A DNA stretch of 64,000 nucleotides from Candidatus Enterousia sp. Its GTDB lineage: Bacteria > Pseudomonadota > Alphaproteobacteria > Rs-D84. The notes below the pieces were generated by a model that was given only the letters and a program-made list of their open reading frames with translations, was not told where the DNA came from and ran no database searches. The stretch is taken from positions 12,524 to 76,523 of the forward strand of contig JAZTYU010000008.1 in the NCBI GenBank assembly GCA_045637165.1. The letters run 5' to 3'. A program made the translations under genes and the position numbers. Of the stretch, positions 18,010-36,304 are shown piece after piece (within the stretch, counting starts at the first letter, position 1; every line of letters starts with the position of its first letter).

Positions 18010-19677
18010 TTATGCTTTTAATTTTCGCATTACAACCATAATACCTGCCGGTGTCATACCTGGTATTCTTGACAAGTCTGCGACATTTTCTGGTCTTGTT
18101 GCATTTAACTTTTCGACCAGTTCATTGGTCAGTCCTGGCAAACCGTCATAGACAAAATTCAACGGTATTTTCATTTCTGCATCACGTTTATATGCAGCAA
18201 TTTCACGTTCATTTCGTGCAATATATCCTGCATACATTTTGTCATTTTCTGCAACTATTTTTCCGACCTGATTCATTCTGGAATCGAATTCCGCACATGT
18301 CATCATACCGTATTCGCACGCCATAGTCCCCAGACGTTTTATCGCATTATCTGCCCGCAAGTGTAATCTGTATTCTGCACGTGATGTAAACATACGATAT
18401 GGTTCATCGACCCCCAGGGTTGTGATATCATCAATCATTACACCAATCATTGCGTTTGTTCTGTCCAGTTCCAGATATTTTTTACCCAACGCAAAGGCGG
18501 CCGCATTTATCCCCGCAACCAAGCCCTGTGCAGCGGCTTCTTCATACCCAGATGTTCCATTGATTTGTCCAGCAAAGAACAATCCATTATAATCTTTGGA
18601 TTGCAGTTTTGCATTTAATGCCCGTGCATCAATTGCATCATATTCGATTGCATATCCATATCGAATAATTTCAGCATTTTCCAGACCTGGAATTGTCCGA
18701 ATCCATTTGTCTTGAACGTCTTTGCCAAAACTGGTCGAAATTCCATTAGGATAAATCAGTTCGCTGTTATAACCTTCTGGCTCTAAAAATACATGATGCG
18801 TTTTATGTTCTGGGAAACGCATAACCTTGTCTTCCAGGCTTGGGCAATAACGTGGACCAGTTCCAGTTATATCGCCGTTATACATTGGTGCATCAGAAAT
18901 ATTTTGACGAATAATATCATGTGTTTCTTCATTGGTATGTGTAATAAAGCAAACGTTTTCTTTATCTGTATTTCTGTAAGCTTTGTTTTTTACATCCAAC
19001 GAAAACCAGTCGTGTGGATTATCCCCTGGTTGCACCTCGCAAATATCCAGGTTTATCGAAGACCGCAAAATTCGTGCAGGTGTTCCTGTTTTTAATCGCA
19101 GAATTTTAAATCCTAAACTTTGCAAGAACTGTGATGTTTTTGAATCATTTTCTTGGTATGTCCCGTCATCTTGCAATCGGCCTGATGGAATTTTTTCACC
19201 ACCACGTGTAACCACGCCGCCCAAGAAAGTTCCTGTTGTAAACACGATTGCATTTGCAAAGTATTTATCGTTTATTGATTTTTCAATTGCGTTTATACTT
19301 TCAACTTTTTCGAAAATAACCCGAACACCACTTTCGTTCAGAATATCAACAATTGCATTGTGATACATATCCCTGTCAATTTGTGCACGCAACGCCTGGG
19401 TTGCAGGTCCATGTGTTGCATTTAATGTTCGCCAGTGAATACCTGCCCTGTCTGCGGCCCGTGGCATTACACCACCAAAGACATCTATTTCTGCAATCAT
19501 CTGTGATTTGCCGGGTCCCCCAATACTAGGGTTGCATGACAACGCCCCCAAATCTGAATCTGCCAGCGTAATCAGTGCAACATTTGCACCATAATGCTTG
19601 GCTGCAACAGCAGCCTCGACCCCGGCATGTCCACCACCAATAACGATAACATCAAAGTGTTCTGATTTTTGCACCAT
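18010..19677 (-). CDS. mnmG: tRNA uridine 5-carboxymethylaminomethyl modification enzyme MnmG (GidA)
   Basis: FDVIVIGGGHAGVEAA FAD motif and typical C-terminus ...RIPGMTPAGIMVVM. 555 aa, somewhat shorter than the ~620 aa usual for this family. Confidence 0.85.
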   Translation of the reverse strand: MVQKSEHFDVIVIGGGHAGVEAAVAAKHYGANVALITLADSDLGALSCNPSIGGPGKSQMIAEIDVFGGVMPRAADRAGIHWRTLNATHGPATQALRAQIDRDMYHNAIVDILNESGVRVIFEKVESINAIEKSINDKYFANAIVFTTGTFLGGVVTRGGEKIPSGRLQDDGTYQENDSKTSQFLQSLGFKILRLKTGTPARILRSSINLDICEVQPGDNPHDWFSLDVKNKAYRNTDKENVCFITHTNEETHDIIRQNISDAPMYNGDITGTGPRYCPSLEDKVMRFPEHKTHHVFLEPEGYNSELIYPNGISTSFGKDVQDKWIRTIPGLENAEIIRYGYAIEYDAIDARALNAKLQSKDYNGLFFAGQINGTSGYEEAAAQGLVAGINAAAFALGKKYLELDRTNAMIGVMIDDITTLGVDEPYRMFTSRAEYRLHLRADNAIKRLGTMACEYGMMTCAEFDSRMNQVGKIVAENDKMYAGYIARNEREIAAYKRDAEMKIPLNFVYDGLPGLTNELVEKLNATRPENVADLSRIPGMTPAGIMVVMRKLKA

Positions 19678-20405
19678 TAAAAACGTCCCATACCGCCATT
19701 TACATGTAAAGTCTGACCATTGATATATGCGGCCTCATCAGATGCCAAGAACACACATGCATTTGCAATATCTTCTGGTTCGCCAAATCGTCCTGCTGGG
19801 ATTTGTGCCAGATAATTTTTCTTTAATTCTTCTGGCAGAACATCAGTCATAGGTGTTTTGATAAATCCAGGTGCGATTGCATTTGCTGTGATACCACGTG
19901 ATGCAACCTCAGCTGCAATTGATTTTGTCATTGCAATCATACCACCTTTTGATGCGGCATAATTTGCCTGACCTGGTCCACCGATTGTTCCGATTATCGA
20001 AGCCATATTGATAATGCGTCCAAATCTGTTTTTCATCATAGGCATAATTGCAGCCCGACACATTTTGAAACAAGACCGCAAATTAGTATTGATAACATCA
20101 TCGAATTGCTCATCTGTCATACGCATCAACAAAGTATCTTTTGTAATACCTGCGTTATTGACCAGAATATCGATTTTACCGGCCTTTTCGATTGTGTTCA
20201 TAATCAATTCAACAGCACTGCCTTCTTGGGCCAAATCTGCTGGAATTTTGATAAATTCATCACCAAATTCAGCGTTCATTTTTGCGATATTTCGACCAGA
20301 AACAACGACCGTTGCCCCTGCTTCCTTCATTTTTTTTGCGATTGCGACCCCGATACCACCTGTGGCCCCGGTAATAAGTGCGACTTTTCCTGTTAAATCA
20401 AACAT
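19677..20405 (-). CDS. fabG: 3-oxoacyl-ACP reductase
   Basis: SDR motifs TGATGGIG, NAGI and YAASK; adjacent to fabD. Confidence 0.85.
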   Translation of the reverse strand: MFDLTGKVALITGATGGIGVAIAKKMKEAGATVVVSGRNIAKMNAEFGDEFIKIPADLAQEGSAVELIMNTIEKAGKIDILVNNAGITKDTLLMRMTDEQFDDVINTNLRSCFKMCRAAIMPMMKNRFGRIINMASIIGTIGGPGQANYAASKGGMIAMTKSIAAEVASRGITANAIAPGFIKTPMTDVLPEELKKNYLAQIPAGRFGEPEDIANACVFLASDEAAYINGQTLHVNGGMGRF

Positions 20406-25626: not shown

Positions 25627-25703
25627 TGGTGGGTGGTATTGGACTCGAACCAACGACCTTTACGATGTCAACGTAACGCTCTAACCAACTGAGCTAACCA
25701 CCC
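25627..25703 (-). tRNA. tRNA-Val (anticodon GAC), CCA encoded. Integration target of the adjacent element.
   Basis: The reverse complement GGGTGGTTAGCTCAGTTGGTTAGAGCGTTACGTTGACATCGTAAAGGTCGTTGGTTCGAGTCCAATACCACCCACCA has a 7-bp acceptor stem, anticodon stem TTACG/CGTAA and loop TTGACAT. Confidence 0.9.
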
Positions 25704-25708: not shown

Positions 25709-25815
25709 TTTACACTAACAGCTTTTATTCAGATTTGTAATATATTGGGCTTTTTTGGTGTTTGTATCTTTATTGCTATTTCCTGCTATGAAATACCCAA
25801 AGACGCTACAAAGCC

Positions 25816-25835
25816 TGCTCCAAAATTGCTCCAAA
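25816..25835 (+). repeat. Tandem TGCTCCAAA(A) repeats (candidate integrase arm-type sites), left end
   Basis: TGCTCCAAAA at 25816 and TGCTCCAAA at 25827, an 11-bp period. The same pair, same strand and same period occur at 35701/35712. Confidence 0.4.
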
Positions 25836-25991
25836 TCAAATTCAATGAATCTGAACTTGCTGTACGCGTAGGCTATAATAGCAGAAAAAAGCAGTTTGTA
25901 AACATAAAAATGCAATTTTGCTTATCAAGGTTAGTTCTTACAAAAATAATTAGAAAATAACAAAGGCATAAAATAAACAAAGGAGAAAAAT

Positions 25992-26204
25992 ATGCCAAGA
26001 ATGATAATCGGATATTATCCAGTAAAAGAAGTTATGGCCTTGGGGGCAAAATATTGGGAAGACATGGTATGTGTAGCGGAGTGCCTAAGGATGCCTGTAG
26101 ACCCATCTGTCAAAAGAGTTATCGAAGATTTGAAACGTGGGAGAGAAATTACGTTAGGACAAGCGAATAAAATGTTCAAATTCAGAGAAACGACAGGATT
26201 GTGA
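25992..26204 (+). CDS. Hypothetical 70-aa protein (island)
   Basis: Strong RBS AAGGAG 8 nt upstream of the ATG. No recognisable motif. Confidence 0.5.
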   Translation: MPRMIIGYYPVKEVMALGAKYWEDMVCVAECLRMPVDPSVKRVIEDLKRGREITLGQANKMFKFRETTGL

Positions 26205-26253
26205 TTATTGCTTAAGCAATAAGCTTATCAAGGGCGCTTTATGGCGCTCTTGA
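26205..26253. promoter_or_regulatory. Perfect 18-bp palindrome plus 10-bp-stem hairpin upstream of the Rep-like gene (candidate origin or operator)
   Basis: TTATTGCTTAAGCAATAA (26205-22). TCAAGGGCGC-TTTATG-GCGCTCTTGA (26228-53, one G-T mismatch). Confidence 0.35.
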
Positions 26254-26473
26254 GGTCATTGCGCATGAATTTGCAGTGTATGAAGAGGTATATAAAGAAC
26301 TGACAGCGAGTTGTTTATATATCTTCGCGTTATGCATACATCTTATCAAGATGCGCATGATAGTGAAAAAACGCTTTTGGGTATTGTGTGGTTCATCCCG
26401 CGGTCTCAAAAACGTGTATCAATACCAAAATCTGGTAAGTATATTTTTATACCCAAAACAAAATGGAGAAAAA

Positions 26474-27244
26474 ATGGAAAATCAAGAAGAAACAAAGATT
26501 GTAGAATGGCTAGAAAGTCTAGAATTTACTCATTCGATGTCTTTACAGTTACCATTTTGTATAAAAACACACAAGCTTGAAACAACAAAGACTTATATAC
26601 GAAAATTTATGAAGGATTTTGAATTGGGGATTATTTATAAAAAGTACAATCAACAAAGAAACAATAAAATCAAAGATACAAATGACTGGCAAAGAAGACT
26701 CGTTGATTTTGTTGTGTTTTTTGAAAATCATGAAATTTATTATACACCATACCATTGTCATATATTGTTGAACGTGAAAAAGAAAAATGGTGTTTTGTAT
26801 TCTGAAGAAGAAATTCACTTAGCTTTGGAATACGCTAAGGAAAAATTCGCCAAAATGTTATCAAAAAAAGAAGGTTCTGTAACAGCTGAAGAGATAAAAA
26901 AGTTATTGGTGAATTATGATATCAGACAGATAAACCCTTTGGATAGCATTTTTCATTATGATATCAAAGAATTTGTTCAATGTAATAAGATTACTTCTAT
27001 TGATAGATTAGAAGATGCTGTTACTTTGTTAGGTGTAACTAGACGTAAAAGGCCTGCAAAAGAACGGAAAAATCCAGAAAAAGAAGAAGTTGTAAAACCA
27101 GTCAAGAAGCCATTCTGCAGTGTGTTTAGGTTGTTGAAAAAAGCACTATGCCCAACGAAGCTTCTGAATGGCGTAGTTGGGCAGATGTGCCAATTATCAA
27201 TTAGGTATTTTGAGTTTATAACGGAAAGATTATATAAAACCTAG
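26474..27244 (+). CDS. HUH-endonuclease-like replication initiator (inovirus Gp2 / rolling-circle Rep-like)
   Basis: Start moved to the ATG at 26474 with RBS GGAGA. Motif order: SMSLQLPF (motif 1-like), YTPYHCHILLNV (HUH motif 2), FHYDIKEF (Tyr motif 3-like). 256 aa. Confidence 0.5.
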   Translation: MENQEETKIVEWLESLEFTHSMSLQLPFCIKTHKLETTKTYIRKFMKDFELGIIYKKYNQQRNNKIKDTNDWQRRLVDFVVFFENHEIYYTPYHCHILLNVKKKNGVLYSEEEIHLALEYAKEKFAKMLSKKEGSVTAEEIKKLLVNYDIRQINPLDSIFHYDIKEFVQCNKITSIDRLEDAVTLLGVTRRKRPAKERKNPEKEEVVKPVKKPFCSVFRLLKKALCPTKLLNGVVGQMCQLSIRYFEFITERLYKT

Positions 27245-27247
27245 TGT

Positions 27248-27436
27248 TTACAACCAATGGCGATGTCCGTACTTGTCAATGCGTATTTGCTTTCCAAGAG
27301 AAGAAATTACCATGATTTCACCATTTTTGTGAAATGCCCCCAATGCTTTTGGAAATATTATATTCTTTCCGCCATTGCGTTTCACGATTAGATTATCGTC
27401 TTTCCATCTGTAATGTAAGTTGCTTTTTACTGCCAT
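27248..27436 (-). CDS. Hypothetical 62-aa protein (island), convergent with the Rep-like gene
   Basis: RBS AAGGAA 7 nt upstream of the ATG. No recognisable domain. Confidence 0.4.
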   Translation of the reverse strand: MAVKSNLHYRWKDDNLIVKRNGGKNIIFPKALGAFHKNGEIMVISSLGKQIRIDKYGHRHWL

Positions 27437-27596
27437 TGAACGTTCCTTTGGTTACGATTATTAGAACTTGCGCACTTTTATCAAAATTGATTGTTGATAA
27501 TTTCAAGAAAAATATAGATACAGAAATTACTAATTCGTATACGGGTTTGTTCCTATGTCGTTTGTTTTTTGTTGTATAATATGATATAATGTACAT

Positions 27597-27771
27597 GACA
27601 CAGGTGACTGTGTTGGGGCGTCATAACCCAGAAACTTACAGTGTCCGCGGGGACAATAAATACCTCCAACTCAACTGGTTGGAGGGTTGCGAATATATTG
27701 AATAAGCACGCTATTTACTGTAAGTTATAGTTATGAACCTCCAACCGTCCGCTTTGTGACGGTTTCATTTT
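27597..27771 (+). promoter_or_regulatory. Leader RNA copy B: ~170-nt terminator/antiterminator element upstream of the secreted-protein cassette
   Basis: Extended -10 TGATATAAT (27582-90). Hairpin TGTCC-GCGG-GGACA (27642-55). Seg1 CCTCCAAC (27663-70), seg2 GGTTGGAGGG (27677-86), seg3 AACCTCCAACC (27736-46). Terminator AACCGTC-N8-GACGGTT plus T-rich tail (27743-71). Homologous to 35928-36099. Confidence 0.55.
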
Positions 27772-27785
27772 GGTTAGGAGGGATT

Positions 27786-35897: not shown

Positions 35898-35921
35898 ATA
35901 ATATTTCGTATGGGATATAAT
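35892..35921 (+). promoter_or_regulatory. Candidate promoter for leader RNA copy A, sharing the palindromic TTGCAA -35 with the divergent tRNA promoter
   Basis: TTGCAA (35892-97), 18-nt spacer, TATAAT (35916-21). Confidence 0.4.
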
Positions 35922-35927
35922 ACCGAT

Positions 35928-36099
35928 TGTAATGGGGAACCCGTTATGCGAGATTAGAACTCTCGCCCAACAGTCGTCTGCGCAGACGTTAATTGCTCCA
36001 ATCCGTTGGGTTGGAGGGTGGCTAATACATTGAATAACCACTGAGCATACTGTTGTGCAAAGTTCTAACCTCCAACCACCCTATTACGGTGGTTTTTTT
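35928..36099 (+). promoter_or_regulatory. Leader RNA copy A: ~170-nt terminator/antiterminator element, paralog of 27597-27771
   Basis: Hairpin CGTCT-GCGC-AGACG (35975-88). Seg1 GCTCCAATCC (35995-36004), seg2 GGTTGGAGGG (36009-18), seg3 AACCTCCAACC (36067-77). Terminator AACCACC-N7-GGTGGTT plus T7 (36074-99). Confidence 0.55.
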
Positions 36100-36118: not shown

Positions 36119-36304
36119 ATGCATATTATTGACCAAATCGAAGAATACAGACAAGTAAACCAAATCCCAGTTTTTCAAATTTGCAATACAATTGGCGTTT
36201 CGGAATCTGAATATTCAAATATGCTATCCCATCATATTTGTCCTACAATATTCAGTTTGATAATGTTTATAAATGCAACAAAAAATCCCCTAAAAAACAT
36301 ATAA
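36119..36304 (+). CDS. Small XRE-like HTH protein (61 aa)
   Basis: The ATG at 36119 lies 20 nt after the leader terminator. IEEYRQVNQIPVFQICNTIGVSESEYSNMLSHHICPTIFSLIMFINA fits the HTH_XRE helix pattern. Weak RBS (GGGGG). Confidence 0.45.
   Translation: MHIIDQIEEYRQVNQIPVFQICNTIGVSESEYSNMLSHHICPTIFSLIMFINATKNPLKNI

Follow-up and report, generated by a model that had tools for sequence, protein, structure and literature searches.

The window analysed here is a 64-kb stretch of DNA from Candidatus Enterousia sp., and all coordinates are positions in this window unless another locus is named. It contains two copies of a structured RNA element on the + strand: copy A (approximately 27597–27771, ending with the T-run) and copy B (approximately 35928–36099). 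Copy A is held by a 10-kb island (approximately 25711–35816) inserted in the 5′ half of a tRNA-Val(GAC) gene, with tRNA boundary positions at 25630–25703 and 35822–35858. About 40–50 nt of the tRNA are duplicated at the right island end, beyond which copy B lies. It is unusual for the 5′ half of a tRNA gene, and not the 3′ half, to be the integration site. The island cargo includes a tyrosine integrase (34093–35436), an AAA_14/DUF4143 ATPase (32023–33336) and an AlpA-like helix–turn–helix (HTH) protein (35449–35682), whose HTH_17 match lies below the Pfam cutoff. Behind copy A, a Shine–Dalgarno sequence (SD; 27776–27782) leads into an open reading frame (ORF) for a 309-aa protein that starts at GTG 27786 (27776–28715 with the SD), and a gene for a 1045-aa protein (28694–31831) comes next; the ORF behind copy B encodes a 61-aa protein (36119–36304). 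We find that the two elements are members of a large uncatalogued family of folded leader RNAs of about 170 nt, and that the element has a more complex build and a far wider distribution than the window alone shows.

Over about 240 nt, copies A and B share 77% identity. A 29-nt core pattern matches the window exactly twice, against zero expected, and a covariance model of the core, built from 49 diverse members of the family, scores 76.1 bits on copy A and 52.0 bits on copy B, with no third match in the 64 kb. Compared with dinucleotide shuffles, the folds reach z values of −4.5 (copy A) and −4.1 (copy B), and their shape is common to both. An earlier note on this DNA had read four parts in each copy, and all of them are found at the positions given there. 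They comprise a small hairpin, a segment seg1 (27663–27670 in copy A, 35995–36004 in copy B) that pairs with seg2 (GGTTGGAGG; 27677–27685 and 36009–36017), a conserved block, and a segment seg3 (CCTCCAACC; 27738–27746 and 36069–36077) that runs into a terminator. The compensatory differences it had proposed are also present, both in the small hairpin (GTCC-GCGG-GGAC at 27643–27654 versus CGTCT-GCGC-AGACG at 35975–35988) and in the terminator stem (AACCGUC/GACGGUU in copy A versus AACCACC/GGUGGUU in copy B). A consensus scan places terminator-like sites at 27743–27764 (followed by TCATTTTGGT) and 36074–36094 (followed by TTTTTATAAA). The same holds for the proposed −10 box and start codon: a GATATAAT box ends 7 nt 5′ of each proposed 5′ end, and GTG 27786 and ATG 36119 lie 15 and 20 nt past the T-runs, respectively. 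The −10-like GATATAAT of copy A (27583–27590) is the same in two relatives, and for copy B the consensus scan finds a promoter-like TTGCAA-18-TATAAT (35892–35921).

We describe the anatomy of copy A from its 5′ end. The minimum-free-energy fold begins with hairpin P0 (ACACAGG-UGA-CUGUGU, 27598–27613), which is the same in three relatives, and is followed by hairpin PA (27615–27629), in which GGGG and CCC enclose an 8-nt loop, CGUCAUAA. Segment X (ACUUACAGU, 27634–27642) precedes the small hairpin (GUCC-GCGG-GGAC) and an A-rich linker, in a ...GGAC(A/G)AAAA... context that is recurrent in relatives. The anti-P1 strand seg1 (CCUCCAAC) pairs with seg2 (GGUUGGAGG), which is also the 5′ strand of helix P1, as its covariation indicates. 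P1 encloses hairpin P2 (UGC/GCA with the 15-nt loop GAAUAUAUUGAAUAA, 27688–27708), the pairing of which likewise covaries, and hairpin P3 (27711–27730), whose loop ACUGUAAGU (27717–27725) has a 9-nt complementarity to X. The joining strand J3/1 (UUAUGAA, 27731–27737) is complementary to the PA loop and leads to seg3 (CCUCCAACC), the 3′ strand of P1. The last 4 nt of seg3 are at the same time the base of the intrinsic terminator (AACCGUC-loop-GACGGUU followed by UCAUUUU, 27743–27771).

Copy B has the same plan with different sequences. Its 5′ hairpin P0 (35929–35947) is seen in the fold, and the sequence and fold give PA (GCGAGA-UUAGAAC-UCUCGC, 35948–35966) and the small hairpin. X (CAACAGU) lies at 35968–35974, and seg1 (GCUCCAAUCC) is assigned from the fold and from family covariation. 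The core (36009–36077) folds alone as a three-way junction with −22.7 kcal/mol, and consists of seg2, P2 (36018–36041, loop UAAUACAUUGAAUAA), P3 (36043–36062), J3/1 (36062–36068) and seg3. The terminator (AACCACC-loop-GGUGGUU followed by UUUUU) occupies 36074–36099. Two pairing rules are thus kept with different sequences: the PA loop matches J3/1 as UCAUAA/UUAUGA in copy A and UUAGAAC/GUUCUAA in copy B, and X matches the P3 loop as ACUUACAGU/ACUGUAAGU in copy A and CAACAGU/ACUGUUG in copy B.

Pattern scans together with the covariance model recovered at least about 150 relatives. A gapped pattern scan of one genome per species gave at least 120 loci. Among the matches listed, every locus belongs to a gut, rumen or termite-gut metagenome-assembled genome (MAG) of the Alphaproteobacteria, labelled Candidatus Enterousia, 'Rickettsiales bacterium' or similar. 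Several loci per assembly are common, with 4–6 or more copies per genome, and the window DNA falls into this group, being 72–79% identical to loci from such MAGs over long syntenic blocks. The core model found about 15 further copies in the relatives' loci that the pattern had missed. Viral contigs scanned with the conserved block yielded six true relatives; a relaxed viral pattern (GAATAYAYNGAATAA...CTCC) gave mostly noise, with a model match in only 3 of 100 loci, and a phage-type copy aligned by BLAST to E. coli genomes and GenBank phages returned nothing or chance matches. Our literature searches found no published description of the alphaproteobacterial form of the leader and nothing relevant for the P2 loop sequence.

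The members share one order of elements: seg1, a 3–8-nt loop, seg2, P2 (3–5 bp with an A-rich loop), P3 (5–8 bp), J3/1 (6–7 nt, mostly AA-ended), seg3, the terminator with its U-run, about 20 nt, the SD and the start codon. This order makes seg2:seg3 the closing helix, P1, of a three-way junction. The earlier note had taken seg2:seg3 as an antiterminator helix; it does compete with the terminator, and it is more than that, since it closes a conserved junction. What was described there as a conserved unpaired block is in fact made up of the hairpins P2 and P3 within this junction, and the two long-range complementarities, PA loop to J3/1 and X to P3 loop, had been overlooked. The small hairpin sits between X and seg1, and in leaders of one P1 type (UGAC, defined below) it is expanded to a long arm. 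About 30–70 nt 5′ of seg1, this arm carries a GC-clamp hairpin and a U-run in four UGAC-type leaders and others, for example GGCGCGCAAUAAUGCGCCGUUUUUA; within the leader, this combination resembles an additional terminator placed upstream. A terminator-like hairpin is also seen 45–55 nt before P1 in four phage members and in the E. coli relative discussed below.

Covariation is found in every helix of the core. In an alignment of 49 sequences, 89% of cells are paired versus 74% in shuffles, double-change cells number 142 versus 56, and pairing falls to 30–54% when the partner is slid by 1–3 columns. P1, P2 and P3 all hold pairs that have changed on both sides. In P1, 93% of cells are paired and the pairs covary (UA/AU, UA/CG and GC/UA), and in P2 every pair covaries. 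The model-found copies carry a P1 core of GGAGU:ACUCC, GGAAU:AAUCC or GGAGC:ACUCC, and keep only the halves GAAUA...(R)AAUAA of the P2 loop, the middle of which is variable and once holds a hairpin. The conserved junction and loop nucleotides are G after P1, C between P2 and P3, AA before seg3 and GAAUA...AAUAA in P2, and an RCC motif lies 3′ of P1 in most copies, where it may be an indirect hint that the 5′ end is made by RNase P from a longer leader. When 131 full-length sequences were aligned with MAFFT, misaligned flanks left RNAalifold with no pairs beyond the five of GGAGG:CCUCC; we therefore used anchored counts and the core alignment instead.

The anchored counts over 131 distinct copies extend this to the competing strands. 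Seg1 was detected in 109 of the 131 relatives and covaries with seg2, and the three segments change in concert, with AACC and UGAC as the main P1 types and rarer ones beside them. For example, seg2 GGUUGGAGG occurs with CUCCAACC and CCUCCAACC, and GUCAGGAGG occurs with CUCCUGAC and CCUCCUGACC. This joint covariation supports the logic of seg1:seg2 versus seg2:seg3 pairing, so the competition with the terminator that had been proposed from two copies is borne out across the family. The terminator 5′ arm starts 0–1 nt past CCUCC of seg3 in 107 of 131 copies; the stems are 7–11 bp, and at least five U residues fall within the next 8 nt in 79%. The element has the make-up of an attenuator, a GC-rich hairpin with a U-run that shares nucleotides with an alternative helix 5′ of an ORF. 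In the 5′ domain, 95 of 128 relatives have PA (GRGG and CCY around an 8-nt loop), the stem of which covaries (GAGG/CCUC versus GGGG/CCC). The PA loop has at least 6 contiguous nucleotides complementary to J3/1 of the same copy in 97% of PA-bearing copies, compared with 5.6% of permuted controls. X has at least 7 nt complementary to the P3 loop in 83% of copies, compared with 46% of controls.

A same-strand ORF with an SD follows 121 of 132 members, at a median distance of 54 nt past seg3 (10th–90th percentile 35–72 nt). As the earlier note had supposed, the element is therefore a 5′ leader and not a repeat in random contexts, and the roughly 20 nt between the U-run and the SD leave too little room for a separate promoter. 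Small proteins of 61–85 aa account for 27 of the 121 ORFs (18 have an XRE-type HTH according to Pfam, and nine are homologous to the product of the copy B gene), and about 45 encode cysteine-rich or repeat proteins with a signal-peptide-like N-terminus, as judged by eye and with a crude pattern. Others encode outer-membrane β-barrel proteins, a DNA methylase and an ABC exporter, and one product is VirB2-like by a weak match below the Pfam cutoff. Members on phage contigs precede the antirepressor genes Rha, Bro-N (twice) and AntA. Taken together, the 121 ORFs show neither a metabolic nor a transport theme. AACC-type leaders stand before 25 of the 27 small-regulator genes, and secreted cysteine-rich protein genes are enriched behind UGAC-type leaders, which could reflect two specificity classes or simply leaders and genes being inherited together. 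The dinucleotide that precedes the downstream SD often repeats the one in front of the seg2 GGAGG (CA in the UGAC type, NU in the AACC type): CA is found in 7 of 21 versus 1 of 30, and U in 12 of 30 versus 1 of 21, a suggestive comparison that is confounded by the shared ancestry of leader and gene and was not used.

The genes behind the two window copies show how leader and gene travel together. The 309-aa protein has a hydrophobic, by eye signal-peptide-like, N-terminal stretch and no Pfam domain. Homologous leader–gene pairs of copy A occur in six relatives' loci; for two of these (L050 and L056), 86% identity is limited to the leader, so conservation is higher in the leader than in the gene that follows. 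The SD region of copy A (GGUUAGGAGGG, 27771–27785) nearly duplicates seg2, so that seg1 or seg3 could additionally cover the SD in transcripts that read through. The 1045-aa protein has an HExxH motif (IVHEQSHLVDD) near its C-terminus, an N-terminal signal-like sequence and no Pfam domain; judged from these motifs, it is possibly a secreted effector of the metalloprotease type carried by the island. The 61-aa gene is kept behind the same leader in eight other MAG loci. Its product has no Pfam hit and gives only weak N-terminal HTH-type matches to the PDB (E = 0.1–0.3), and exact-product look-ups found neither the 309-aa nor the 61-aa protein on record. Copy B and the 61-aa gene adjoin tRNA-Val(GAC) in four related MAGs, which identifies copy B as the resident chromosomal copy; in two loci, the tRNA directly adjoins the leader. 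At another locus (L091), a member at 1121–1251 on the minus strand lies about 70 nt from a two-piece alphaproteobacterial tmRNA gene (1322–1659) and about 0.9 kb from two tRNA genes, a position near classic sites of island integration that again hints at carriage on integrative elements.

We compared the element with the families in Rfam. A scan of the window with Rfam 15 at the gathering score returned three tRNAs only, and permissive scans of both copies gave chance-level matches apart from sRNA-Xcc1 (RF02221). The claim that the element matches no known class therefore stands as far as gathering scores go, and has to be qualified by a sub-threshold relative. RF02221 matches copy B at 36009–36085 with 26.8 bits (E = 0.011 in 331 nt) and four relatives with 31.1–36.5 bits, all below its gathering score of 53 bits, and has no match on copy A at E ≤ 10. 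In the other direction, the core model scores 14.8 bits (E = 0.12) on the sRNA-Xcc1 of E. coli O157:H7 EDL933, in the correct register. The sub-threshold scores in both directions make the kinship probable but remote, and formal membership fails. Structurally, the cmscan alignment to RF02221 has P1 and P3 in register, and the sRNA-Xcc1 junction, a P1 that closes two hairpins, is present: all three helices covary and both window cores fold so alone. The inner P2 hairpin of RF02221 (flanked by AAUACAAU and GAAUAA) is absent in both window copies, where the flanks are fused into one loop, GAAUAUAUUGAAUAA or UAAUACAUUGAAUAA. The family is thus uncatalogued, yet with a distant named relative it is not categorically new.

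The EDL933 locus, found through a lead in the literature (PMC5331693), allows a closer look at this relative. It is a bona fide sRNA-Xcc1 with 69.1 bits (19620–19708 of locus L129; NZ_CP008957, 1394619–1394707, minus strand) and is followed after about 40 nt by a gene that carries the annotation phage antirepressor Ant. Its P1 is GGUCGGGUGG/CACCCGACC, and in P2 the internal-loop strands AAUACAAC and GAAUAU flank an extra hairpin; the 15-nt P2 loop of the window corresponds to these two strands fused. P3, J3/1, a hairpin that shares ACC with P1, and then an SD and ATG follow, and an upstream CACCCGA is able to pair with seg2. In the second copy of one MAG locus (L021, 7129–7213, minus strand), a small hairpin, GAAUC-AUU-GAUUC, interrupts the P2 loop at its centre, and this copy forms a structural intermediate between the alphaproteobacterial form and the sRNA-Xcc1 of Rfam. 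In Xanthomonas, sRNA-Xcc1 is a discrete, abundant RNA of 88 nt, whose mapped 5′ end is the start of P1 (PMC2996969; Rfam model), and in enterohaemorrhagic E. coli (EHEC) it is an 89-nt, highly abundant RNA with low ribosome coverage (PMC5331693). In integron cassettes of Xanthomonas it precedes symE (bioRxiv 10.1101/2025.06.18.660453), in APSE phages it precedes an ORF6N protein (bioRxiv 10.1101/2020.03.17.996009), and in a Xylella prophage its neighbours are C4 and isrK hits (PMC12189769). None of this cited literature describes it as a leader.

From these data, we consider it probable that each copy, as the 5′ leader of the next gene, acts as a transcription attenuator that is off by default. 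In this mechanism, the junction would close through P1 (seg2:seg3), and a full-length P1 would occupy 4–5 nt of the terminator base, so that RNA polymerase reads through. Alternatively, seg1, which is transcribed first and lies only 3–8 nt from seg2, would capture seg2 in a hairpin; seg3 would then be free, the terminator could form and a short RNA of about 170 nt would be released. The contacts of the PA loop with J3/1 and of X with the P3 loop would tie the 5′ leader to the junction, either as tertiary contacts of the closed fold or as a long alternative helix of the open fold. Nested folding of the window RNAs gives −62.5 and −60.4 kcal/mol, with seg1:seg2, P2, the terminator and a long interrupted helix of the 5′ leader with the region of the P3 loop, J3/1 and CCUC. 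Enforcing P1 costs 11–17 kcal/mol in this calculation, in which pseudoknots are outside the model, and this preference points to the default-off state. The covarying PA and P3 stems indicate that those hairpins do form, so the long-range pairings may be tertiary contacts and not part of the open fold. The pairing logic stands under either role, since P1 and the terminator share 4–5 nt and seg1 rivals seg3 for seg2. That termination and read-through are regulated, and which fold is 'on', is what we infer from the sequences; the trigger would be a cellular factor or global signal and not a pathway metabolite, as the classes of downstream genes and the conserved A-rich halves of the P2 loop suggest.

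Several points weigh against this interpretation. The promoters, termination and read-through are predictions from sequence; in copy A, the consensus scan found no full −35/−10 match and the terminator U-run is interrupted (UCAUUUU). The energy gap is large for a ligand to overcome, although it may mislead because pseudoknots are outside the model. The main sample came from a pattern in which GGAGG, CCUCC and the greater part of the P2 loop were preset, so the conservation of those positions is carried only by the roughly 15 model-found copies, and many copies are paralogues, so that the covariation counts are not independent events. Finally, RNAs of the sRNA-Xcc1 type are abundant at 88–89 nt, and the short RNA may thus be the main product and not a by-product.

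This last point leads to another explanation. Leader-derived regulatory RNAs of phages include C4 of phages P1 and P7, P4 CI, N15 CA and IsrK of Gifsy-1; IsrK is both a leader and a small RNA, and c4 of P1/P7 has complementary segments arranged as a1b1, a′b′ and a2b2. Each window copy might mainly be the gene for a small trans-acting RNA of this type, which would end at the terminator, perhaps be trimmed to the junction, and pair with its own or sister leaders or with the downstream SD, the P1 types being its specificity classes. We regard this as unlikely, and it has real points in its favour. The closest known relative is seen as a discrete 88–89-nt RNA (PMC2996969, PMC5331693) and occurs beside C4 and isrK hits in Xylella (PMC12189769), genomes carry several copies, which fall mainly into two P1 types, and the upstream, internal and downstream complementarity in discrete types may be likened to the arrangement in c4. 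In EDL933, the nearest consensus promoter is about 95 nt upstream of P1, so the mapped 5′ end of sRNA-Xcc1 would need processing, and the P3 loop has an 11-nt complementarity to the SD region of ant, which 0.85% of shuffles reach. An upstream hairpin loop of EDL933 holds the same 8-mer, CAAAUAAG, once more, in an arrangement like that of c4 in phage P1. Such complementarity of a loop to the downstream ribosome-binding region is seen only in this relative: in the alphaproteobacterial family, the P3 loop shows no enriched downstream complementarity (mean 6.2 nt versus 6.1 in controls), and we rejected the P3 loop as an SD-targeting element there. We likewise rejected the P2 loop as an antisense seed for nearby sequence, since its complement 7-mers are not enriched in the 200-nt flanks (1.6 versus 1.8 per kb background). 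Seg2 and seg3 are paired in the mature fold and would make poor seed regions, the tight spacing of terminator, SD and start in the 121 copies argues that read-through feeds the gene, and the Rfam models of C4 (RF01695) and isrK (RF01394) have no match at E ≤ 10 on either copy. A trans-acting role is compatible with the attenuator and does not exclude it, and the short RNA may well have a role of its own, as IsrK or C4 does.

The remaining explanations concern what is sensed, or whether RNA matters at all. A true riboswitch, in which a small molecule or ion, with a global signal of the cyclic-dinucleotide kind as the most plausible candidate, would bind the pseudoknotted junction and stabilize P1 as an ON switch, would accord with the complex, strongly covarying architecture with conserved junction and loop nucleotides, with the two long-range loop contacts, with the classical P1/terminator overlap as expression platform, and with the many copies per genome before surface, pilin-like, outer-membrane protein and phage genes, a distribution comparable to that of cyclic di-GMP riboswitches. 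We nevertheless find it improbable. The genes lack a metabolic or transport theme, no Rfam 15 riboswitch model matches and the data point to no ligand; the nested energy gap is wide, and the anti-P1 strand lies 5′ of the aptamer, which would be pre-empted before it is transcribed, so that a factor binding the 5′ leader fits better than a ligand. Attenuation by the ribosome, through a trp-type leader peptide across seg1 or through 30S binding to the SD-like GGAGG of seg2, shares the 1:2/2:3/3:4 topology of the trp attenuator, and both window copies carry GGAGG and CCUCC. It is very improbable, and the SD/anti-SD sensing offered by the earlier note does not hold up: GGAGG:CCUCC is replaced by GGAGU:ACUCC and other pairs in model-found copies and by GGGUGG:CACCC in EDL933. 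A conserved leader peptide was rejected as well, as an ATG-initiated ORF ending in the P2 loop occurs in only about a quarter of copies, with an SD on 5 of 58 such ORFs and lengths scattered over 4–51 codons. Equally hard to credit is a mobile or selfish repeat of the MITE or REP type, or a signal acting as DNA (an operator or promoter, for example), in spite of the several copies per genome, the GAATA direct repeat in the P2 loop, and the resemblance of TTGAAT and P3 TATAGT to a −35/−10 pair in some members. The embedded promoter was discarded, since its spacing and −10 are not conserved (the P3 3′ strand varies as UAUAG, AUUGU or ACAG) and the P3 strand covaries as RNA. Just two copies occur in the window, both 5′ of genes; terminal inverted repeats or target duplications were not seen in the inspected flanks, for which no systematic search was made. 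Constant orientation and spacing to downstream ORFs, together with compensatory changes that keep RNA pairs, G–U included, in every helix, led us to discard both the repeat and the DNA-level readings.

A broader reading of the default-off attenuator is that it represents a new and widespread class of riboregulator with a pseudoknotted fold, responsive to a global cellular signal that could be a second messenger or a dedicated RNA-binding factor. As an ON-type terminator switch, it would co-ordinate surface-protein, small-regulator and mobile-element genes (antirepressors, methylases and island cargo) in gut Alphaproteobacteria and phages. We put this forward as a speculation that is rather doubtful at present. 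If it is true, the sRNA-Xcc1 family, filed as a trans-acting small RNA, would at root be a cis-acting leader that gates antirepressor and toxin genes. Should the reading hold, uncultured but common Alphaproteobacteria of the gut and rumen would place many of their surface-protein and small-regulator genes, along with cargo of integrated islands like that of the window, under one RNA switch, with a regulon readable from sequence alone. A mechanism open to testing would also be gained for sRNA-Xcc1, which is annotated in Xanthomonas, Xylella, EHEC and phages of aphid symbionts and the function of which has been vague for 15 years. As it directly precedes an antirepressor gene of a prophage in E. 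coli O157:H7, it may be relevant to prophage induction, and the E. coli copy makes the question experimentally tractable, the window organism being uncultured.

Finally, we compared the element with three known kinds of system. The likeness to sRNA-Xcc1 covers the three-way junction of P1, P2 and P3 in the same order and size, a G-rich 5′ strand of P1, UUxxA in J3/1 and RCC after P1, and P2 with AAUAC/UAxU on one side and GAAUAA on the other. In both, the 3′ end of P1 is common to the next hairpin, an SD and start codon follow about 40–50 nt on, and the RNA lies upstream of mobile-element genes. However, P2 of sRNA-Xcc1 is an extended arm, whereas the alphaproteobacterial P2 is a simple hairpin with a 13–16-nt loop. 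The long 5′ domain (P0, PA, X, the small hairpin and seg1) and the strong U-tract terminator belong to the alphaproteobacterial family, and the literature treats sRNA-Xcc1 as a trans-acting small RNA and not as a leader. The phage leader RNAs C4, IsrK, P4 CI and N15 CA resemble the element in their leader position before antirepressor or toxic genes, in giving a short terminated or processed RNA beside a read-through mRNA, and in having complementary segments upstream, inside and downstream that change together between variants. They differ in that here the complementary segments form a switch in cis with an overlapping intrinsic terminator, and most members precede chromosomal surface-protein or small-regulator genes and not immunity regions. 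With ON-type riboswitches and the trp-type attenuator, the element shares a closing helix set against a terminator and an extra upstream strand that gives three mutually exclusive pairings; here, however, it comes with neither a coherent regulon nor a leader peptide nor a match to any riboswitch or leader model of Rfam 15.

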